DNA from: Escherichia phage LorandFenyves_Bas91
Sequence record: PQ850614.1
Direction: 5' to 3' (one strand)
Length of the DNA stretch: 64,000 nt
Positions 1 through 64,000 of the stretch are shown here, piece by piece. The first letter of the stretch is position 1, and every line of letters starts with the position of its first letter. Made by a program: the position numbers and the translations under genes. The notes below the pieces were generated by a model, which ran no database searches, was not told the DNA's origin, and worked only from the letters and a program-made list of their open reading frames with translations.

Positions 1-1542
1 ATGTCATTAGATAAACAAATTTATGAAGCTCTAACTGGTAACAACCTTAGTGTAGAGGAAAAGAAAGCACTATTGAATATGTTGAAAGAGCGTGACCAAT
101 GGAGGAAGTATAATAAGATTTTGTCTTTCAAGGCGTATGACTTCCAAAAGAAATTTTATGCAGCAGGATTGAAGCATCGCTTTAGATTCTTGTGTGCAGC
201 GAACCGTGTTGGTAAATCTTACAGCGAGGCATACGAGTTTGCTTGTCATGTCACAGGTCGCTACCCAACTTGGTGGACAGGATATAAATTTAAAAGACCT
301 ATCTTAGCATGGGCAGTTGGTATTACAGGGGATTCCACAAGGAAAGTATTGCAAAAGGAATTGTTTGGTACACCTATCGGAAAGGATACAAATTTATTGG
401 GGACAGGTGTCATTCCTCGTGATGCTATCGTCATTGACACGATAGAACGAGATGGTAACAAACTTCAAATCGTACAAATCAAACATCAAAACGAAAGAGG
501 AGAGTTTGACGGTTTAAGTACATTAGAATTCCGTTCAACCCAACAGGGTGAACACACATTGATGGGTGCAACAGTTGACTACATTTGGTTAGACGAAGAA
601 GATCCATATGAGTCTATGGCTATATTCGCACAGTGCGTCACACGTACACTCACAACTAAAGGTCTAGTTACAATTACAGCTACACCAGAGAACGGTTTAA
701 CTGAACTGGTAGATAAATTCATGAAAGGTGAAGGGGATGAGAGCACAGGTTCTCTATATTTCCAGAATGCTTCTTGGTGGGATGCTCATGTAGACTTAGG
801 TGGACATATCACTGACCAAGATATAAAAGATATGACTGAAGGTATTCCAGCGTGGCAGTTAGAGATGCGTTCGAAAGGTATGCCATTGTTAGGAAGTGGT
901 TTGATTTATGATGTATCGGATGACACAATTAAATGTGAACCATTCGAAATTCCTGATACGTGGAAACGTGTCTGTGCAATTGATATTGGTATTGATCACC
1001 CAACTGCTGCTGTTTGGACAGCTTATGATGCAAACACGGATACTATCTATGTTTACGACTCATATAAAGAAGGTGGCTTTACTCCAGTGTATCATGCTCC
1101 AGCTATTAATGGTCGTGGTCAGTGGATTCCTGTCATCCTGCCGCACGATGCGGACAATATTGAGAAAGGTAGTGGATCATCTGTTGCTCAATTCTATAAG
1201 AATGCAGGAGTTAACGTGCAGAGTGAGACCTTCTACAACAAAATTGGAATGGATGGTAAAAAGAACTTCTTTGTAGAACCGGGAATCACAGATATCCGAG
1301 AAAGAATGATGAGTGGACGCTTTAAAATCTTTAACACAGCCGCTAACGCTAAGCTATTCGAAGAGAAAGCTAGATATCACCGTAAGGTTGGTAAGATTAT
1401 TAAAGAACATGATGACTTAATGGATGCAATGCGCTATTCAGCGTGCTCTGTTACACATCGTGGTCGCTCTAAACATGACGTTAGCTACGGAAGTGCTTCT
1501 CTGTATGAGGCAAACGTAAGCAGATGGAATCAGAGTTACTAA
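1..1542 (+). CDS. terminase large subunit
   Basis: Walker A-like CAANRVGKS and Walker B-like DYIWLDEE in the N-terminal ATPase part; C-terminal nuclease-type region; sits directly upstream of portal. Window begins at its ATG. Confidence 0.88.
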   Translation: MSLDKQIYEALTGNNLSVEEKKALLNMLKERDQWRKYNKILSFKAYDFQKKFYAAGLKHRFRFLCAANRVGKSYSEAYEFACHVTGRYPTWWTGYKFKRPILAWAVGITGDSTRKVLQKELFGTPIGKDTNLLGTGVIPRDAIVIDTIERDGNKLQIVQIKHQNERGEFDGLSTLEFRSTQQGEHTLMGATVDYIWLDEEDPYESMAIFAQCVTRTLTTKGLVTITATPENGLTELVDKFMKGEGDESTGSLYFQNASWWDAHVDLGGHITDQDIKDMTEGIPAWQLEMRSKGMPLLGSGLIYDVSDDTIKCEPFEIPDTWKRVCAIDIGIDHPTAAVWTAYDANTDTIYVYDSYKEGGFTPVYHAPAINGRGQWIPVILPHDADNIEKGSGSSVAQFYKNAGVNVQSETFYNKIGMDGKKNFFVEPGITDIRERMMSGRFKIFNTAANAKLFEEKARYHRKVGKIIKEHDDLMDAMRYSACSVTHRGRSKHDVSYGSASLYEANVSRWNQSY

Positions 1543-1603: not shown

Positions 1604-3847
1604 ATGGCTAAGCAAAAATATAGTGAAGAGGTGTTGGACGAGTTACGTGTTGACCTTCAACGTCGTTTTAATTATGCTCAAGGCTACGTGGACATGGCTG
1701 TTAAGGGCTATGCTCGTGAAGCTTGGGAATATTTCTATGGTAACTTACCTGCACCAGTAACTGCTGGCAGCTCTAGTTGGGTAGATCGTACTGTTTGGGA
1801 ATCTGTTAACGGTACATTGCAAGATATTATTAACGTATTCTGCTCTGGTGATGAAGCAGTTACTTTCGTAGCTGACAACCAACAGGATTCTGATGCTGCT
1901 GATGTAGCAACTAAATTAGTTAACCAAATTCTTCTGCGTGACAATCCGGGATACAATATTATCTCTTCTGCTGCACAAGAATGTCTGGTTACTCGTAACT
2001 CTTTTATCAAGTATTATTGGGATGAACAAACTTCTACTCAAACTGAAGAAGCTGAAGGTGTACCACCGGAAGCATTGGCTGCATATGTTCAGGGATTAGA
2101 AGCTGGTGGACTCAAGAATCTGGAAGTCTTCACTGAAGAAAATGAAGACGGTACAGTCGATGTTAAAGTTACTTACGAACAAACTGTTAAACGTGTGAAA
2201 GTTGAATATGTTCCTTCAGAGCAAATCTTTGTTGATGAACATGCTACCTCTTTTGCAGATGCACAATACTTCTGTCATCGTGTACGTCGTTCTAAAGAAG
2301 ATCTGGTTGCTATGGGCTTCCCTAAAGATGAGATTGAAGCATTCAACGACTGGACAGACACGATGGATACCACTCAATCTACGGTTGCTTGGTCTCGTAC
2401 TGACTGGCGTCAGGATATTGATGCTGATATTGGTACAGATACCGAAGATATCGCTTCTATGGTTTGGGTTTATGAGCACTATATTCGTACTGGTGTTCTA
2501 GATAAGAATAAAGAGTCTAAACTCTATCAGGTTATTCAAGCTGGTGAGCATATCCTTCACACTGAAGAAGTAACTCACATTCCGTTTGTAACCTTCTGTC
2601 CGTATCCGATTCCGGGTTCCTTCTATGGTCAATCGGTCTATGACATTACGAAAGATATTCAAGATTTACGTACCGCGTTAGTTCGTGGTTATATTGATAA
2701 CGTCAACAATGCTAACTATGGTCGATACAAAGCTCTTGTTGGTGCATACGACCGTCGCTCTCTGCTTGATAACCGTCCCGGTGGAGTGGTTGAAATGGAA
2801 CGTCAGGACGCTATTGACCTGTTCCCATACCATAACCTACCTCAAGGTATTGACGGCCTTCTAGGCATGTCTGAGGAGCTTAAAGAGACACGTACCGGTG
2901 TAACCAAACTAGGCATGGGTATCAACCCTGATGTGTTTAAGAATGATAACGCTTATGCAACCGTAGGCTTGATGATGAATGCTGCACAGAACCGCCTCCG
3001 TATGGTATGTCGTAACATTGCTCACAACGGTATGGTTGAACTGATGCGTGGTATTTACAATCTTATCAGAGAAAATGGTGAAGTTCCTATTGAGGTACAA
3101 ACCCCTCGTGGTATGATTCAGGTAAATCCGAAACAATTACCAGCTCGTCACAATCTTCAAGTTGTTGTAGCTATCTCCCCTAATGAGAAAGCAGAACGTG
3201 CACAGAAACTGATTAGCTTGAAACAGCTGATTGCAGCAGATGCACAGTTAGCACCTCTCTTTGGTTTGGAGCAAGACCGTTACATGACTGCACAGATCTT
3301 TGAGTTGATGGGTATTAAAGATACACATAAATACCTTCTGCCTCTGGAACAGTATCAGCCTCCAGAACCTTCTCCGATGGAAATCCTCCAGCTCGAGATG
3401 ACTAAAGCTCAGGTTGAGAACGTACAGGCTTCTTCTCAGAAGATGATTGCTGATGCATTCGACCAACGTGAACGTACTACATTCGAACAGCAGAAAGCTG
3501 CGGATGAATTAAGTCTGCGTCAGGAAGAGTTGCAGTTCAAGCAAGAAAATGCAGCAGATGCAATGACTCTGGAAAACCGTAAAGAAGATAACAATGCTAC
3601 TCTGGAACAAGCTAAGCACAAGTTAGCTCTTATGCAACAGCAGGTCCGTCAGTATGAATCTGTACTGAAAGAATTGCAGATGGTTATGTCTCATCAGGTA
3701 GACCAAGAGAAGATTGTTCAGCAAGCTCGTGTTCAGGACAAAACTTTGGAACTCCAAAAGAAAGAAGCTAATGTAACTAAGAAAGAGCAACAAGCTTCTC
3801 TCAAAGATTCACGGATTCCAGGCAAACGTCTTGGAAGTAAAAAGTAA
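1604..3847 (+). CDS. portal protein
   Basis: 747 aa, immediately after terminase, long coiled-coil acidic C-terminus; RBS GGGAGAG upstream. Confidence 0.75.
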   Translation: MAKQKYSEEVLDELRVDLQRRFNYAQGYVDMAVKGYAREAWEYFYGNLPAPVTAGSSSWVDRTVWESVNGTLQDIINVFCSGDEAVTFVADNQQDSDAADVATKLVNQILLRDNPGYNIISSAAQECLVTRNSFIKYYWDEQTSTQTEEAEGVPPEALAAYVQGLEAGGLKNLEVFTEENEDGTVDVKVTYEQTVKRVKVEYVPSEQIFVDEHATSFADAQYFCHRVRRSKEDLVAMGFPKDEIEAFNDWTDTMDTTQSTVAWSRTDWRQDIDADIGTDTEDIASMVWVYEHYIRTGVLDKNKESKLYQVIQAGEHILHTEEVTHIPFVTFCPYPIPGSFYGQSVYDITKDIQDLRTALVRGYIDNVNNANYGRYKALVGAYDRRSLLDNRPGGVVEMERQDAIDLFPYHNLPQGIDGLLGMSEELKETRTGVTKLGMGINPDVFKNDNAYATVGLMMNAAQNRLRMVCRNIAHNGMVELMRGIYNLIRENGEVPIEVQTPRGMIQVNPKQLPARHNLQVVVAISPNEKAERAQKLISLKQLIAADAQLAPLFGLEQDRYMTAQIFELMGIKDTHKYLLPLEQYQPPEPSPMEILQLEMTKAQVENVQASSQKMIADAFDQRERTTFEQQKAADELSLRQEELQFKQENAADAMTLENRKEDNNATLEQAKHKLALMQQQVRQYESVLKELQMVMSHQVDQEKIVQQARVQDKTLELQKKEANVTKKEQQASLKDSRIPGKRLGSKK

Positions 3848-7656: not shown

Positions 7657-10299
7657 ATGATCGTTTATAATAACCAAGCACCTGATGCAGTGAATAACGT
7701 TGGGCAGTTTGGTGCTACTGAAGGCTCTATCGGGGCTTATAAGCAAGCAGCAGAATATGCAGCTGACTCCAAATATTGGGCACTGTTAGCAGAATCTAAG
7801 TTTGGTACAATTGATGATTTGATCGCTGAAGTAGAACGTTTATATCAGCAAGGTGTTCTGATGAAGCAGGATATCGAAGATCTTAAGCAGGACTTTAAAG
7901 ATCAAGATGCTCGTCTGATGAGTTTGATTGCTCAAACTAACGCAGCGGTATCAGATGCGAATAATGCTGTAGCTCTAATTAATCAGAAACTTATTGAAGT
8001 CCAGAACCAGCTTGACGTTCTGTTAGGAATGTCCGTTGATGTAACCACACTTCCTCCGGGAACTCCGGCTACTGGTTCTTTTAATCCTAACACTGGTGTA
8101 ATTTCTTTAGGTATCCCAGAAGGCGAACCCGGAAAGGATGGTTCTGTTAAGGATTTAGACACAGCTCCTACTGGTGTTCCAGAGCTAGGTGACTTGGGTT
8201 TCTATGTTGATAAAGATGACAATACCGTCCATAAAACTACTCTAGAGAATATTGCTAACTTAATCCCATCTGTTCGTTCTGTTTCTGTTAATGGGGGACC
8301 AGCTCTTGATGGAGAGGTTGCTCTAACAATCAACAAAGAGACAGTAGGTTTAGGAAATGTTCTGAATGTTGCTCAGTACAGTCGTCAAGAGATTAATGAC
8401 AAATTTGACAAGACTACCAAGACATACCAATCAAAAGCAGAAGCTGATGCTGATGCTCAGTATCGTCAAGTAGGTGAGAAAGTTTTAGTTTGGGAAGCTA
8501 CTAAGTATGAATTCTATACTGTTGCTGCTAACAAAACATTGACTCCAGTTAAAACTGAAGGTAGAATTCTTACCGTTAACTCCCGTTCTCCAGATTCCAG
8601 TGGTAACATTGACATTACCATTCCAACAGGAAACCCTTCTCTGTATCTTGGTGAGATGGTGATGTTCCCTTACGACCCATCTAAGAATATCTCCTACCCA
8701 GGAGTTCTTCCTGCTGATGGTCGTCTGGTATCAAAAGAATCTGCTTCAGATTTAGGCCCATCCCTTGTCAGCGGACAGCTCCCTGTTGTTTCAGAAACTG
8801 AATGGCAATCGGGGGCTAAACAGTACTTCTCTTGGGGCAAGTTAGCAGACGGTATTACCGATGCGGATTCTACTAATTTTATCAACATTCGACTCCCTGA
8901 TTGGACTGGAGGGGAGGCAATAAGAGCACCAGATTCTGATAAAGACTCTCAGTACAATGGGTCTGTACAGGCTCAGAAACCTTATGTTGTTACTGTAAAT
9001 AACCAAGCTCCTGATGAGATTACTGGTAATGTGAACATCTCCAGATCAATTTTAGGTGCTGCTTCTTCTGGAGCAAACTCTGACATTACATCTTTATCTG
9101 GACTCACAACACCGCTATCCATCTCTCAAGGTGGTACTGGAGCTAAAGATGCTGCTGGTGCTCGTTCTAATTTAGGTCTAGGCTCAACAGCTACCCTCAA
9201 CACAATACCTGTAGCCAATGGTGGCACAGGAGCAACTACTGTTGATGTTGCTCGTTCCAATTTATCCATAGACCGAATAGATCAAGCCTCCGGGGAGAGT
9301 AAATTATTATCCCCTAACAAAGAAACCTACCTCTTTGTGGATAACAATGGGTGGGGCTGTTATAGTACCTCAGCTGGAAGGGTTGGTGATGTGGCTCTTT
9401 CTGTTGAAAGAGGCGGTACTGGAGCTAAAAATGCTGCTAGTGCCCGATCTAACTTGGGGTTGGGGAGTGTTTCCACTCTAGATAACGTCCCTATCGCTAG
9501 TGGTGGGACAGGGGCTGGAGATGCTGCTGGTGCAAGGTTTAATCTTGGGTTAGGTAACTCAGCCACGATGAATACCGGAACTAACAGTGATAATGTTCTT
9601 AAGGTTGGTGATTTTGGAATTGGAAGACCTGACGGCGCTCTTGTTTTTGATACTACTTCACAAGACCAACTTCTTGCTGGACTTGACACTTATGGGCTGT
9701 GTGTGTTTAGGAATAACCAACAAATAGCAGCACCTTGGGACATATGGAACTACTCCTCAAACCTTTTCTTTAGGGCGGGTGACACATACAGTATGATAAG
9801 TATTCCGTTTGAGTCTGCTGGTAAGATAAAAGTTTTTGGTGGTGCATCAGGCAGTGGGTGGAAAACCTCAAGGACGGTATATGATACTGTAAATACAACT
9901 GTTGACGTCAATGGCTTTATCAAAGCAGCGTCACCAATAGTTAAGGTATTCCATGACGGAAGTTTTGAAACAAACGAACAATCTGATGGAGTTAGTGTTA
10001 AGAAAATCTCCACCGGGGTTTATTTAATTTCAGGGTGTCTTGGTCTTAATTCTGATGCAGGATGGGGTGGTGTAGATGGAGGTTTTGAAATCCCAATAGA
10101 CCGAAACAAACAACCTAGAGTTTGGCTTGACTATGAGGTTAAAGAGGATGGTTCTCTTTTAATTAAAACTTATCATAGAACCCATTCAACATCCCCAGCT
10201 TTTGCTAGAAACGAGTTGGAAGGTTTTTCTGACGGAGACCCTGTTGACATTCCTAAGGATGCGTTCATTTCGGTTCGTGTTGAAATGCCTTCTAAGTAA
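7657..10299 (+). CDS. tail fibre protein with GGTGA...AR.NLGLG repeats
   Basis: Three or more repeats (SQGGTGAKDAAGARSNLGLGS, ERGGTGAKNAASARSNLGLGS, SGGTGAGDAAGARFNLGLGN) typical of phage tail-fibre repeats. Confidence 0.7.
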   Translation: MIVYNNQAPDAVNNVGQFGATEGSIGAYKQAAEYAADSKYWALLAESKFGTIDDLIAEVERLYQQGVLMKQDIEDLKQDFKDQDARLMSLIAQTNAAVSDANNAVALINQKLIEVQNQLDVLLGMSVDVTTLPPGTPATGSFNPNTGVISLGIPEGEPGKDGSVKDLDTAPTGVPELGDLGFYVDKDDNTVHKTTLENIANLIPSVRSVSVNGGPALDGEVALTINKETVGLGNVLNVAQYSRQEINDKFDKTTKTYQSKAEADADAQYRQVGEKVLVWEATKYEFYTVAANKTLTPVKTEGRILTVNSRSPDSSGNIDITIPTGNPSLYLGEMVMFPYDPSKNISYPGVLPADGRLVSKESASDLGPSLVSGQLPVVSETEWQSGAKQYFSWGKLADGITDADSTNFINIRLPDWTGGEAIRAPDSDKDSQYNGSVQAQKPYVVTVNNQAPDEITGNVNISRSILGAASSGANSDITSLSGLTTPLSISQGGTGAKDAAGARSNLGLGSTATLNTIPVANGGTGATTVDVARSNLSIDRIDQASGESKLLSPNKETYLFVDNNGWGCYSTSAGRVGDVALSVERGGTGAKNAASARSNLGLGSVSTLDNVPIASGGTGAGDAAGARFNLGLGNSATMNTGTNSDNVLKVGDFGIGRPDGALVFDTTSQDQLLAGLDTYGLCVFRNNQQIAAPWDIWNYSSNLFFRAGDTYSMISIPFESAGKIKVFGGASGSGWKTSRTVYDTVNTTVDVNGFIKAASPIVKVFHDGSFETNEQSDGVSVKKISTGVYLISGCLGLNSDAGWGGVDGGFEIPIDRNKQPRVWLDYEVKEDGSLLIKTYHRTHSTSPAFARNELEGFSDGDPVDIPKDAFISVRVEMPSK

Positions 10300-63022: not shown

Positions 63023-63304
63023 TTACCACTCCTTACCGGTTGTTGTTACAGAACCACCACACCACTGCGCATCGGATAAGGTTTTAGTCTCCTCATCTAC
63101 TGCTGCACCATTCAGGCATGAGATACCACTGTAACGCATATCAATTTCACCAGAAGGAACCTTCTCGCCCTTATGCCAGCGAGAAACACAAACACCTTCC
63201 ACTGCTACTGCACACCATCCATCAGGACGGCTCTGTACGCAGCCTGTAAGGGCCACACAGACAAGGAAGATACAGATTAAGGATATTACACCACCCCAAC
63301 TCAT
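63023..63304 (-). CDS. small lipoprotein (possible superinfection-exclusion or receptor-masking protein)
   Basis: Signal peptide with lipobox LTGC; AGGAGG RBS; 93 aa Cys-rich mature part. Confidence 0.55.
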   Translation of the reverse strand: MSWGGVISLICIFLVCVALTGCVQSRPDGWCAVAVEGVCVSRWHKGEKVPSGEIDMRYSGISCLNGAAVDEETKTLSDAQWCGGSVTTTGKEW

Positions 63305-63449
63305 AACTACCTCCTATTTGATTTGGTGGACTATCTGGAATCGAACCAGAAGCTCACTAAGAAAGTAATTCCCACTGTTATAAAAGCACTTGCCTCAACA
63401 GGGATACACTAACTCTGGTGCCGTACCCATACTAGCCCTTGTTTAAAAT

Positions 63450-63525
63450 TGGTCGGGACGGAAGGATTCGAACCCTCGTAAGGCGAGTTAGAAGCTCGCT
63501 GCCTGTTCCACTAGACTACGCCCCG
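63450..63525 (-). tRNA. tRNA-Arg (anticodon UCU), CCA encoded
   Basis: Hand-folded cloverleaf: acceptor CGGGGCG/CGTCCCG, D-arm GTCT-AGTGGAAC-AGGC, anticodon arm GCGAG-CTTCTAA-CTCGC, variable CTTAC, T-arm GAGGG-TTCGAAT-CCTTC, discriminator A, CCA. Confidence 0.8.
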
Positions 63526-63938
63526 ATAGATTTGAAACCGTTATACTTACCTGCACATGATCTGTTACAAAAAGAATTTGCATATTTAACATTTCGCTTT
63601 TCTTTTTCAAAAGATCTTCCACAATAAGAGCAAACAACTGAAATCATTGTTCTTCCAGTAGTTGCTTCTAATGTTGACTTCTTTCTGTGATTTTCTATGG
63701 AAAGTATCTGAAGATTAGATATGTCATCATTAGTTTTATTTCTGTCAATATGATCAACCTCCTCGTCTTCAGTTAGGTACCTGCCTATGTGACAAGACAT
63801 TAAATATCTTGCGTAAGAAATGGTTGTCCTCTCCGTGTCGGTATTATACAAATCAACACGCTTCCTACCATCTCTGCTTGTTCTTAAGTAGCCCAATCGC
63901 CAGTCATTAACGAAGGGGTATTCTAACTCTATCTTCAA
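63516..63938 (-). CDS. HNH homing endonuclease
   Basis: EVDHIDRNKTNDDISNLQIL HNH core plus C-terminal Cys-rich zinc-binding region; its last codons overlap the tRNA 5' end. Confidence 0.65.
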   Translation of the reverse strand: MKIELEYPFVNDWRLGYLRTSRDGRKRVDLYNTDTERTTISYARYLMSCHIGRYLTEDEEVDHIDRNKTNDDISNLQILSIENHRKKSTLEATTGRTMISVVCSYCGRSFEKEKRNVKYANSFCNRSCAGKYNGFKSIGA

Positions 63939-64000
63939 AACCCCTCCATTGAGCTAAGGGTGCTGAGTTTGTTTAACTAAAGATACGCAAGGCCACATCG

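Follow-up and report, generated by a model that had tools for sequence, protein, structure and literature searches.

Escherichia phage LorandFenyves_Bas91 (sequence record PQ850614.1) carries a tRNA-Arg(UCU) gene towards the right end of the 64,000-nt stretch of DNA that we analysed, here called the window. On the minus strand of this region lie a short fragment of a tRNA gene, a free-standing HNH endonuclease gene, the tRNA-Arg(UCU) gene and a predicted tRNA-like RNA gene of 115 nt, abbreviated TLS. The window is from a Kuravirus (a phiEco32/SU10-like coliphage). Over its last kilobase it shares 99.8% identity with Escherichia phage vB_EcoP-CHD5UKE1, of the SU10 species, and ~85 phiEco32/SU10-like podophage records are related to this kilobase. 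The features of the locus, with the basis on which each was assigned, were as follows.

63945-63963, minus strand: 19-nt 5' stub (GCACCCTTAGCTCAATGGA, tRNA positions 1-19) of a resident tRNA-Arg(UCU); sequence comparison
63516-63938, minus strand: free-standing HNH endonuclease gene, 140 aa, TTG start; open reading frame (ORF) list and Pfam HNH_3
63450-63525, minus strand: canonical tRNA-Arg(UCU), called allele C, CGGGGCG...CGUCCCG-A-CCA; ARAGORN and Rfam
63439-63449, minus strand: 11-nt AU-rich spacer AUUUUAAACAA from tRNA-Arg to TLS, the right end of the putative cassette; comparison with SU10-type phages
63324-63438, minus strand: 115-nt tRNA-like RNA gene (TLS); sequence, conserved boundaries and constrained fold
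63433-63438, minus strand: TLS acceptor 5' strand, GGGCUA; sequence reading
63416-63429, minus strand: TLS D-like arm, UGG-GUACGGCA-CCA, 3 bp
63359-63415, minus strand: TLS long irregular arm with an AAGU cap; constrained fold
63334-63350, minus strand: TLS T-arm, UCUGG-UUCGAUU-CCAGA; sequence reading
63328-63333, minus strand: TLS acceptor 3' strand, UAGUCC; sequence reading
63324-63327, minus strand: TLS ACCA, encoded
63023-63304, minus strand: downstream gene, Pfam Phage_lipoprotein, given for context only; ORF list and Pfam

A canonical tRNA-Arg(UCU) gene

A preliminary description of this DNA, made from its letters alone, had placed a tRNA-Arg(UCU) with an encoded CCA at 63450-63525 on the minus strand. 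ARAGORN called this gene as tRNA-Arg(tct), with the anticodon as claimed and as its sole tRNA call in the window, and the Rfam tRNA model (RF00005) also detected it, with a score of 52.9 bits (cut-off 29 bits, E = 3e-10). In the ARAGORN drawing allele C is a full cloverleaf with a 7-bp acceptor and D, anticodon and T arms. The anticodon loop, CUUCUAA, has 7 nt with U33, the anticodon UCU and a purine at position 37, and in the D-loop (UAGUGGAACA) an A lies immediately 3' of GG. The identity elements of E. coli arginyl-tRNA synthetase are A20 and C35, both of which can be read in the allele C sequence. Allele C reads as a known, ordinary tRNA. Its suggested role in supplying AGA decoding is plausible: AGA makes up 8/14 Arg codons in the HNH gene and 18.9% of Arg codons in the long ORFs of the window, which agrees with the 20.2% published for phage YF01 (PMC9965538).

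At 93-100% identity, allele C was found only in HNH-bearing kuraviruses. The next-best matches were ~82% identical and lay in tRNA clusters of large myoviruses (PVP-SE1-like and phiR1-37), where no HNH gene was found near them.

Anatomy of the downstream tRNA-like element

The preliminary description had also reported a perfect T-arm, UCUGG-UUCGAUU-CCAGA, followed by CCACCA. We read this motif at 63334-63350, ~100 nt downstream of the tRNA; together with the UAGUCCACCA that follows it, it spans 63324-63350. In 100 first-order Markov simulations a T-arm (5 bp, UUCRANN loop) with CCA 6-8 nt later was expected 0.11 times per window. Two were observed, adjacent to each other and on the same strand.

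The motif had been described as lying ~50 nt downstream of the tRNA, with no acceptor, D or anticodon stems. The element to which it belongs in fact begins 11 nt past the tRNA CCA, and both an acceptor stem and a 3-bp D-like arm could be built. The acceptor stem had been missed because its 5' strand, GGGCUA (63433-63438), fell outside the range examined at that time (63326-63400). No usable anticodon arm lies at the canonical distance.

The TLS acceptor comprises 6 bp (G-C, G-C, G·U, C-G, U-A and A-U) followed by A-CCA. Its 5' strand is followed by UA and then by the UGG/CCA arm, whose 8-nt loop contains GG, and the T-loop has U54, U55, C56 and A58. The element thus carries a G3·U70 pair, A73 and an encoded CCA. 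When the acceptor stem, D-arm and T-arm were enforced on the single sequence, the tRNA-like fold had an energy of -31.4 kcal/mol, and the remainder formed one irregular arm (positions 24-80).

No promoter or terminator was found between the tRNA and TLS, which suggests that the two are co-transcribed. TLS would be freed by RNase P at G1 and would end at the encoded ACCA. Modelled in this way, it would be an L-shaped tRNA mimic, with the 6-bp acceptor stacked on the 5-bp T-arm, a GG-containing D-loop and a rod of ~57 nt replacing the anticodon arm. The Shine-Dalgarno sequence of the downstream gene begins 10 nt past the TLS CCA, and other TLS-bearing phages have a different gene downstream.

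Conservation and distribution of TLS

Searching 50,697 phage records with blastn, we found TLS at >= 95% identity in 29, and it was annotated in none of them. Among eight phages of three genera (Kuravirus, Nieuwekanaalvirus and Suseptimavirus), the conserved span runs from GGGCUAG to UAGUCCACCA, exactly 115 nt, and the flanking sequences differ. TLS and the adjacent tRNA are each 97.4% identical between SU10 and EP335 (Nieuwekanaalvirus), and 98.3% and 98.7% identical, respectively, between SU10 and 101114UKE3 (Suseptimavirus). The flanks are only 52-72% identical, compared with 97-99% in TLS. Measured against the flank divergence, the three differences in EP335 have P = 6e-16 and the two in 101114UKE3 have P = 7e-28. 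With a conservative divergence of 15.4%, derived from the 84.6% identity of a homologous downstream gene, the probability of <= 3 differences in 115 nt is still 8e-6. Four TLS positions vary among the eight phages. Positions 15 and 48 are in loops, and positions 24 and 73 are in modelled helices, where the changes are wobble-compatible (G·U to A-U at 24, A-U to G·U at 73). TLS occurs with or without the HNH gene. This pattern appears to be that of a functional RNA, not of a pseudogene or of neutral decay.

One diverged relative was identified, a 131-nt element on an unrelated IMG/VR contig (L019), located between tRNA-Ala and tRNA-Thr in a cluster of 14 tRNAs. It keeps GGGCUA...UAGUCC-ACCA and the motifs UAUGG, GGUACG and AGUUUAGUG. 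In its T-stem one pair has changed from U-A to G-C, which is compensatory, and another from C-G to U·G, which is one-sided. The element was called by neither ARAGORN nor Rfam, and its use as a query returned no further relatives. TLS had no match in E. coli genomes. Four pattern scans of IMG/VR for TLS relatives yielded only L019 and unrelated matches, and two metagenome scans and one genome scan yielded nothing real. RNAalifold applied to TLS and L019 gave an unreliable alignment of the interior and no gain in covariation, and the interior structure therefore rests on the constrained single-sequence fold.

Other tRNA-like elements that were uncalled or unusual were seen on IMG/VR viral contigs. 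The L019 contig also has a 'tRNA-Ala' with A3-U70 and an off-register anticodon (2577-2654, minus strand). A 64-nt mini-element, GGGCUU...UAGUCC-ACCA, lies in a 37-tRNA cluster on contig L030 (~7749-7812, minus strand), and a 69-nt element, GGACUA...UAGUCC-ACCA, lies on contig L035 (~551-619, minus strand), on which ARAGORN calls no tRNA.

What kind of RNA TLS may be

Neither ARAGORN with its default settings nor the Rfam tRNA model, even with matches up to E <= 10 admitted, called TLS as a canonical tRNA. An intron-containing tRNA was also considered and rejected, as ARAGORN with introns or lowered thresholds produced implausible models only (an Asn tRNA with an intron and a 66-nt Arg(tct)). 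Since it has no usable anticodon arm, TLS is not a decoder.

The established determinants of alanyl-tRNA synthetase are G3·U70 and A73. Because TLS keeps both, charging with alanine is plausible. The acceptor (G1-C, G2-C, G3·U, then A73-CCA) and the T-loop UUCGAUU resemble those of tRNA-Ala and of transfer-messenger RNA (tmRNA), and the acceptor corresponds to that of E. coli tRNA-Ala(UGC), GGGGCUA/UAGCUCC-A-CCA, minus one G-C pair (the tRNA sequence was verified). Unlike tRNA-Ala, TLS lacks the Ala anticodon arm, and its acceptor/T-arm stack has 11 bp instead of 12. With tmRNA it shares a long helix in place of the anticodon arm, as well as the combination of a tRNA-Ala-like acceptor (G3·U70) and a T-arm, but it has no tag reading frame and no pseudoknots. 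A tmRNA or mini-tmRNA was rejected: ARAGORN -m was negative, Rfam tmRNA families scored <= 7.6 bits, and TLS has 115 nt compared with ~250-400 nt. The only GCA-initiated frame in TLS, APELVYPC followed by a stop, has an E to K change between phages and is not conserved.

Two further candidates were discarded. For a tRNA mimic of the bacterial Y RNA or YrlA kind there was no Rfam match, and the TLS termini form an acceptor stem with ACCA, not a Ro-binding stem. The alignment of phiEco32 tRNA-Arg to the T-arm had raised the idea of a scar left by HNH insertion, which was rejected because SU10 carries the entire TLS without an HNH gene. TLS is an unannotated, conserved tRNA-like element, and our best guess is that it is a processed and possibly alanine-charged tRNA mimic. 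A bolder proposal, that it acts in trans in the alanine-charged form and belongs with L019 and the RNAC of phage T4 to a general class of phage tRNA-like effector RNAs, is speculative and on present evidence doubtful.

A putative HNH-tRNA cassette in a destroyed tRNA-Arg gene

The HNH ORF matched Pfam HNH_3 with 27.5 bits (cut-off 24.8 bits), and its product has two modules, HNH at the N-terminus and CxxC...CxxxC at the C-terminus. The overlap noted in the preliminary description was confirmed: the 5' end of the tRNA shares 10 nt (63516-63525) with the ORF terminus, which reads ...ATC GGG GCG TAG. Nucleotides 1-10 of the tRNA are thus the last base of the Ile codon, GGG, GCG and the TAG stop.

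What appears to be the genuine decayed tRNA fragment of this locus, which the preliminary description had missed, lies at 63945-63963, upstream of the HNH gene. It begins 9 nt past the stop of the upstream gene, the point at which the intact tRNA starts in HNH-less relatives, and all of its nucleotides (19/19) match the 5' end of the tRNA-Arg that is intact in the ECBP2-type locus (L013). The HNH Shine-Dalgarno sequence, GGAGGGG (63941-63947), includes the last bases of this fragment. A 5' tRNA stub lies directly before the HNH start in the window, CHD5UKE1, KM01, YF01, O18-011, 1-6af and Bas93, and in every case it runs into the HNH Shine-Dalgarno sequence. The stub has 19 nt in 1-6af, ~27 nt in Bas93 and 30 nt in YF01 and O18-011, where it reaches the 5' strand of the anticodon stem. 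In SU10, which has no HNH gene, an intact and different tRNA-Arg(UCU) occupies the site and TLS follows after 6 nt; SU10-type phages have CAUUUA in place of the 11-nt spacer. Phages with and without the cassette become homologous again exactly at TLS G1. The position and identity of the stub therefore suggest that the cassette replaced the 3' two-thirds of the resident tRNA-Arg and brought its own tRNA. An intron of group I in a tRNA gene was ruled out because a complete tRNA, not a 3' exon, follows the HNH gene.

The HNH gene is present or absent among near-identical phages, and differs in this respect between SU10 (absent) and both CHD5UKE1 and the window (present). SU10 and CHD5UKE1 are assigned to one species, to which the window also belongs. 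In every carrier the ORF is intact and the overlap is kept. The N-terminal types a and b share 71-73% identity and the C-terminal types alpha and beta 36-48%, and all four combinations of N and C types were seen. The N type follows the length of the stub and the C type follows the type of the downstream tRNA. Allele C was found only with C-type alpha, and a D-arm-less tRNA-Arg(UCU), described below, follows C-type beta in every HNH-bearing phage examined; the D-arm-less tRNA is also present without any HNH gene in HC-25922 and TH42. The four combinations and two linked tRNA types therefore point to repeated recombination at the site. The mosaic would fit a catalytic module and a DNA-binding module linked to a presumably uncut tRNA allele. 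The gene combines three marks of a homing endonuclease: a family nuclease motif, sporadic presence with an intact empty allele, and co-inheritance of flanking markers.

We propose that the tRNA-Arg(UCU) gene resident in an SU10/ECBP2-like kuravirus was invaded by a free-standing HNH homing-endonuclease gene that brought along a tRNA-Arg(UCU) allele of its own. The cassette would have replaced everything 3' of tRNA position 19, and the remaining 19-nt stub would now supply part of the HNH ribosome-binding site. The cassette tRNA would restore AGA decoding, and is presumably an allele that the linked endonuclease does not cut. Since the tRNA 5' end lies within the last HNH codons, maturation by RNase P would sever the HNH mRNA upstream of the stop. 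Any given transcript would then serve either for making the tRNA or for translating HNH but not for both, and the amount of endonuclease would stay low as a result.

Several observations concern the HNH gene and its annotation. Within the HNH ORF, an extended -10-like sequence, TGTATAAT (63843-63850, minus strand), could drive transcription of the tRNA and TLS independently of HNH translation. It is conserved in KM01 and not in YF01, and a promoter scan requiring both hexamers did not list it. In the CHD5UKE1 record (L004, 1591-1969) the HNH gene is unannotated and three short opposite-strand ORFs are listed across it, and the KM01 record (L008) annotates neither the HNH gene nor the tRNA. In the jumbo phage RaK2, two tRNA genes flank an HNH homologue. 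At 24 nt upstream of this homologue there is an unannotated tRNA-like gene (L062, ~1103-1180) whose anticodon loop has CAU, and tRNA-Asn begins 9 nt past the stop codon of the homologue.

Comparison with phage T4 and I-HmuI

The order on one strand of a homing endonuclease, tRNA-Arg(UCU) and a stable RNA of 115-140 nt resembles phage T4, where segB (GIY-YIG) is followed by tRNA-Arg(UCU), RNAD (species 2, 119 nt) and RNAC (species 1, 139 nt). RNAC and RNAD are real RNAs that are expressed late, and their function is listed as unknown. RNAC has a T-arm (CCGGG-UUCGAAU-CCCGG) and paired termini, as does TLS, and TLS lies in the same kind of context as these RNAs, directly downstream of tRNA-Arg in one tRNA transcription unit. 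T4 SegB has been shown experimentally to drive the inheritance of segB itself and of the tRNA genes flanking it, and its recognition site includes the tRNA TψC motif. The SegB paper proposed that maturation of tRNA-Arg cleaves the segB mRNA between its final codon and the stop, and from the 10-nt overlap a corresponding cut of the HNH mRNA is predicted here.

The two systems also differ. The nuclease is HNH_3 in the kuravirus and GIY-YIG in T4, and the kuravirus cassette lies inside a destroyed tRNA gene for which it would supply the replacement. The kuravirus nuclease gene and tRNA physically overlap, by 10 nt. TLS showed no meaningful similarity to RNAC or RNAD in global alignments, so homology to them was rejected, and it has an encoded CCA and an alanine-type acceptor, which RNAC lacks. 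By analogy, the kuravirus arrangement would be a convergent variant of the T4 layout, and its HNH cassette a novel form of the SegB-type homing known from tRNA regions. The HNH protein also shares with I-HmuI-type enzymes the HNH_3 motif, a small two-module architecture and sporadic presence among close relatives. Its best PDB match was I-HmuI (1u3e), and in contrast to that enzyme it is not intron-encoded.

Interpretation and alternative explanations

Taken as a whole, we read the locus as two separate things that adjoin, a mobile HNH-tRNA cassette and an older, independent TLS gene, and assign this reading a probability of about 0.65. Anatomy, conservation, distribution and linkage were observed directly. 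Several points weigh against the reading. The unconstrained optimum for TLS (-35.9 kcal/mol) is more stable than the tRNA-like fold (-31.4 kcal/mol) and breaks the T-arm, pairing UCUGG (positions 89-93) with an upstream CCAGA. CCAGA occurs twice in TLS, at 63414-63418 (TLS 21-25) and 63334-63338 (TLS 101-105) on the minus strand, and UCUGG can therefore pair with either copy; the upstream pairing may be an alternative conformation or a coincidence. The folding z-score of TLS is only -2.2, and the 11-bp acceptor/T-arm stack is shorter than the canonical 12 bp. RNAalifold on the mixed TLS/L019 alignment did not recover the T-arm, and covariation support is thin because only one divergent relative was found. 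The identity of the block formed by the tRNA and TLS could partly reflect recent lateral exchange instead of selection. With E = 0.38, the match of the HNH protein to a homing endonuclease of solved structure falls short of significance. Finally, we infer from sequence the RNase P processing, alanine charging and any trans role of TLS, and likewise the activity and target of the HNH endonuclease.

TLS might instead be only a cis-acting element of processing or stability, a form of 'punctuation' without any trans or aminoacylated role, its identity among phages being largely the result of lateral spread. Such an element would allow RNase P to cut the tRNA free of the mRNA downstream, or would protect RNA ends. 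This would agree with the lack of a promoter or terminator belonging to TLS, with mosaic junctions at the TLS edges, and with the alignment, in which the CCA precedes the next gene's Shine-Dalgarno sequence by 10 nt in every phage. In ECBP2, this position holds a different rod, of high stability (z = -5.7), which ends in CUACCA. However, an acceptor/T-arm minihelix would suffice for this function, yet the 57-nt interior is equally conserved. The downstream gene varies among TLS-bearing phages, phiEco32-type phages manage without TLS, and the exact tRNA-Ala-type set of G3·U70 and A73 would be left unexplained. We regard this explanation as unlikely.

A poorer prospect is that the HNH gene is not, or is no longer, a homing gene, having arrived once with the tRNA by an illegitimate event and being now inherited vertically, the overlap being an accident of compaction. 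No target site was identified, the gene is at the locus in only ~12 of the ~85 related records, the left junctions are at short GGAGG-type microhomologies typical of illegitimate joins, and some homologues in other phages are not beside tRNA genes. Against a single arrival, presence of the gene varies within one species, and the four N/C combinations with two linked tRNA types imply repeated recombination. The ORF is intact, with the overlap, in all carriers, and T4 SegB provides a precedent in which homing was demonstrated experimentally for such an arrangement.

The proposal in the preliminary description that the T-arm region may be a decayed second tRNA, here taken as functionless and perhaps a former tRNA-Arg, is very improbable: although ARAGORN (default) and Rfam do not call TLS, relaxed ARAGORN alone yields models and these are implausible, the acceptor stem has 6 bp, and a weak hairpin (UUAC-UUUCUUA-GUGA) has UCU in a 7-nt loop but U at 37, the region proved instead to be a 115-nt element with intact acceptor stem, T-arm and CCA and no relaxation of constraint, as its stems are intact, its conservation limits are exactly G1 and CCA, all four variable sites preserve structure, and it is conserved like the neighbouring functional tRNA in three genera (97-99%, flanks 52-72%), also in HNH-less phages, with a diverged relative in another phage's tRNA cluster (L019) that retains the acceptor stem and T-arm, whereas the genuine local fragments look different (19-30-nt 5' stubs and a 28-nt 3' fragment in HC-25922).

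Turnover of tRNA genes at the locus

Kuravirus genomes have been described as having 'a single tRNA' (PMC9965538). At least five canonical tRNA-Arg(UCU) alleles occur at one site in similar phages (L001, L002 and L009-L013, upstream of the lipoprotein gene). Their types are those of phiEco32, SU10, NJ01/KBNP1711, L011 and ECBP2, and they differ in acceptor and anticodon stems.

In sister kuraviruses without the canonical tRNA, the locus is occupied by a family of D-arm-less tRNA-Arg(UCU), found by blastn in 145 phage records. Sites include L006 1638-1719 (1-6af), L007 (Bas93), L063 and L064 ~864-945 (HC-25922 and TH42), L065 899-977 (the phi92-like Antha), L066 and L067-L080. The layout comprises an acceptor, UAUCUCA, a normal anticodon arm with CUUCUAA, a 23-nt region with a D-loop-like UAAYUGGAGUAU, and a T-arm. 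ARAGORN missed these genes, and the Rfam tRNA model scored 38.6 bits with the D-arm deleted. In a gapless alignment of 82 nt, 98.8% of cells pair and 12 of the 20 pairs show double-sided changes, a result matched by 0/500 shuffles. Some of the genes terminate in NCCA; others, among them those of the kuraviruses, have an acceptor extended by 6-9 bp and no CCA.

HC-25922 and TH42 (L063 and L064, ~962-1007) also retain a 3' fragment of allele C, 28 nt in length (GGGTTCGAATCCTTCCGTCCCGACCA and the spacer). It lies between the D-arm-less tRNA and TLS and is joined at a GGAGGG microhomology with the Shine-Dalgarno region. Survival of this fragment indicates repeated replacement at the locus. In ECBP2 (L013, 2251-2347) a 97-nt rod (-44.4 kcal/mol, z = -5.7) occupies the SU10-type TLS position. 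The rod is closed by a 12-bp helix followed by CUACCA and is unique to ECBP2.

Implications

The locus is a hot spot at which tRNA-Arg(UCU), in at least six alleles or forms, interchanges with fragments of tRNAs, with an HNH cassette and with tRNA-like RNAs that are unannotated. The D-arm-less tRNA-Arg family is a widespread phage tRNA form that escapes standard tRNA finders. The cassette would offer a clean natural case in which a mobile endonuclease destroys an accessory gene and at the same time supplies the replacement, and the wiring of the cassette is such that tRNA maturation should throttle expression of the endonuclease. These questions concern a phage group that is under development for therapy and is part of the BASEL collection.

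The position of TLS mirrors the succession of tRNA-Arg, RNAD and RNAC in T4, and would provide a second, simpler system in which to study such RNAs. If a class of tRNA-like effector RNAs did exist, it would travel with tRNA-Arg(UCU) and homing endonucleases. Such RNAs might be decoys for tRNA-targeting defences, or might act in ribosome or aminoacyl-transfer pathways, and TLS would then be a tractable handle on the unexplained small RNAs of T4.

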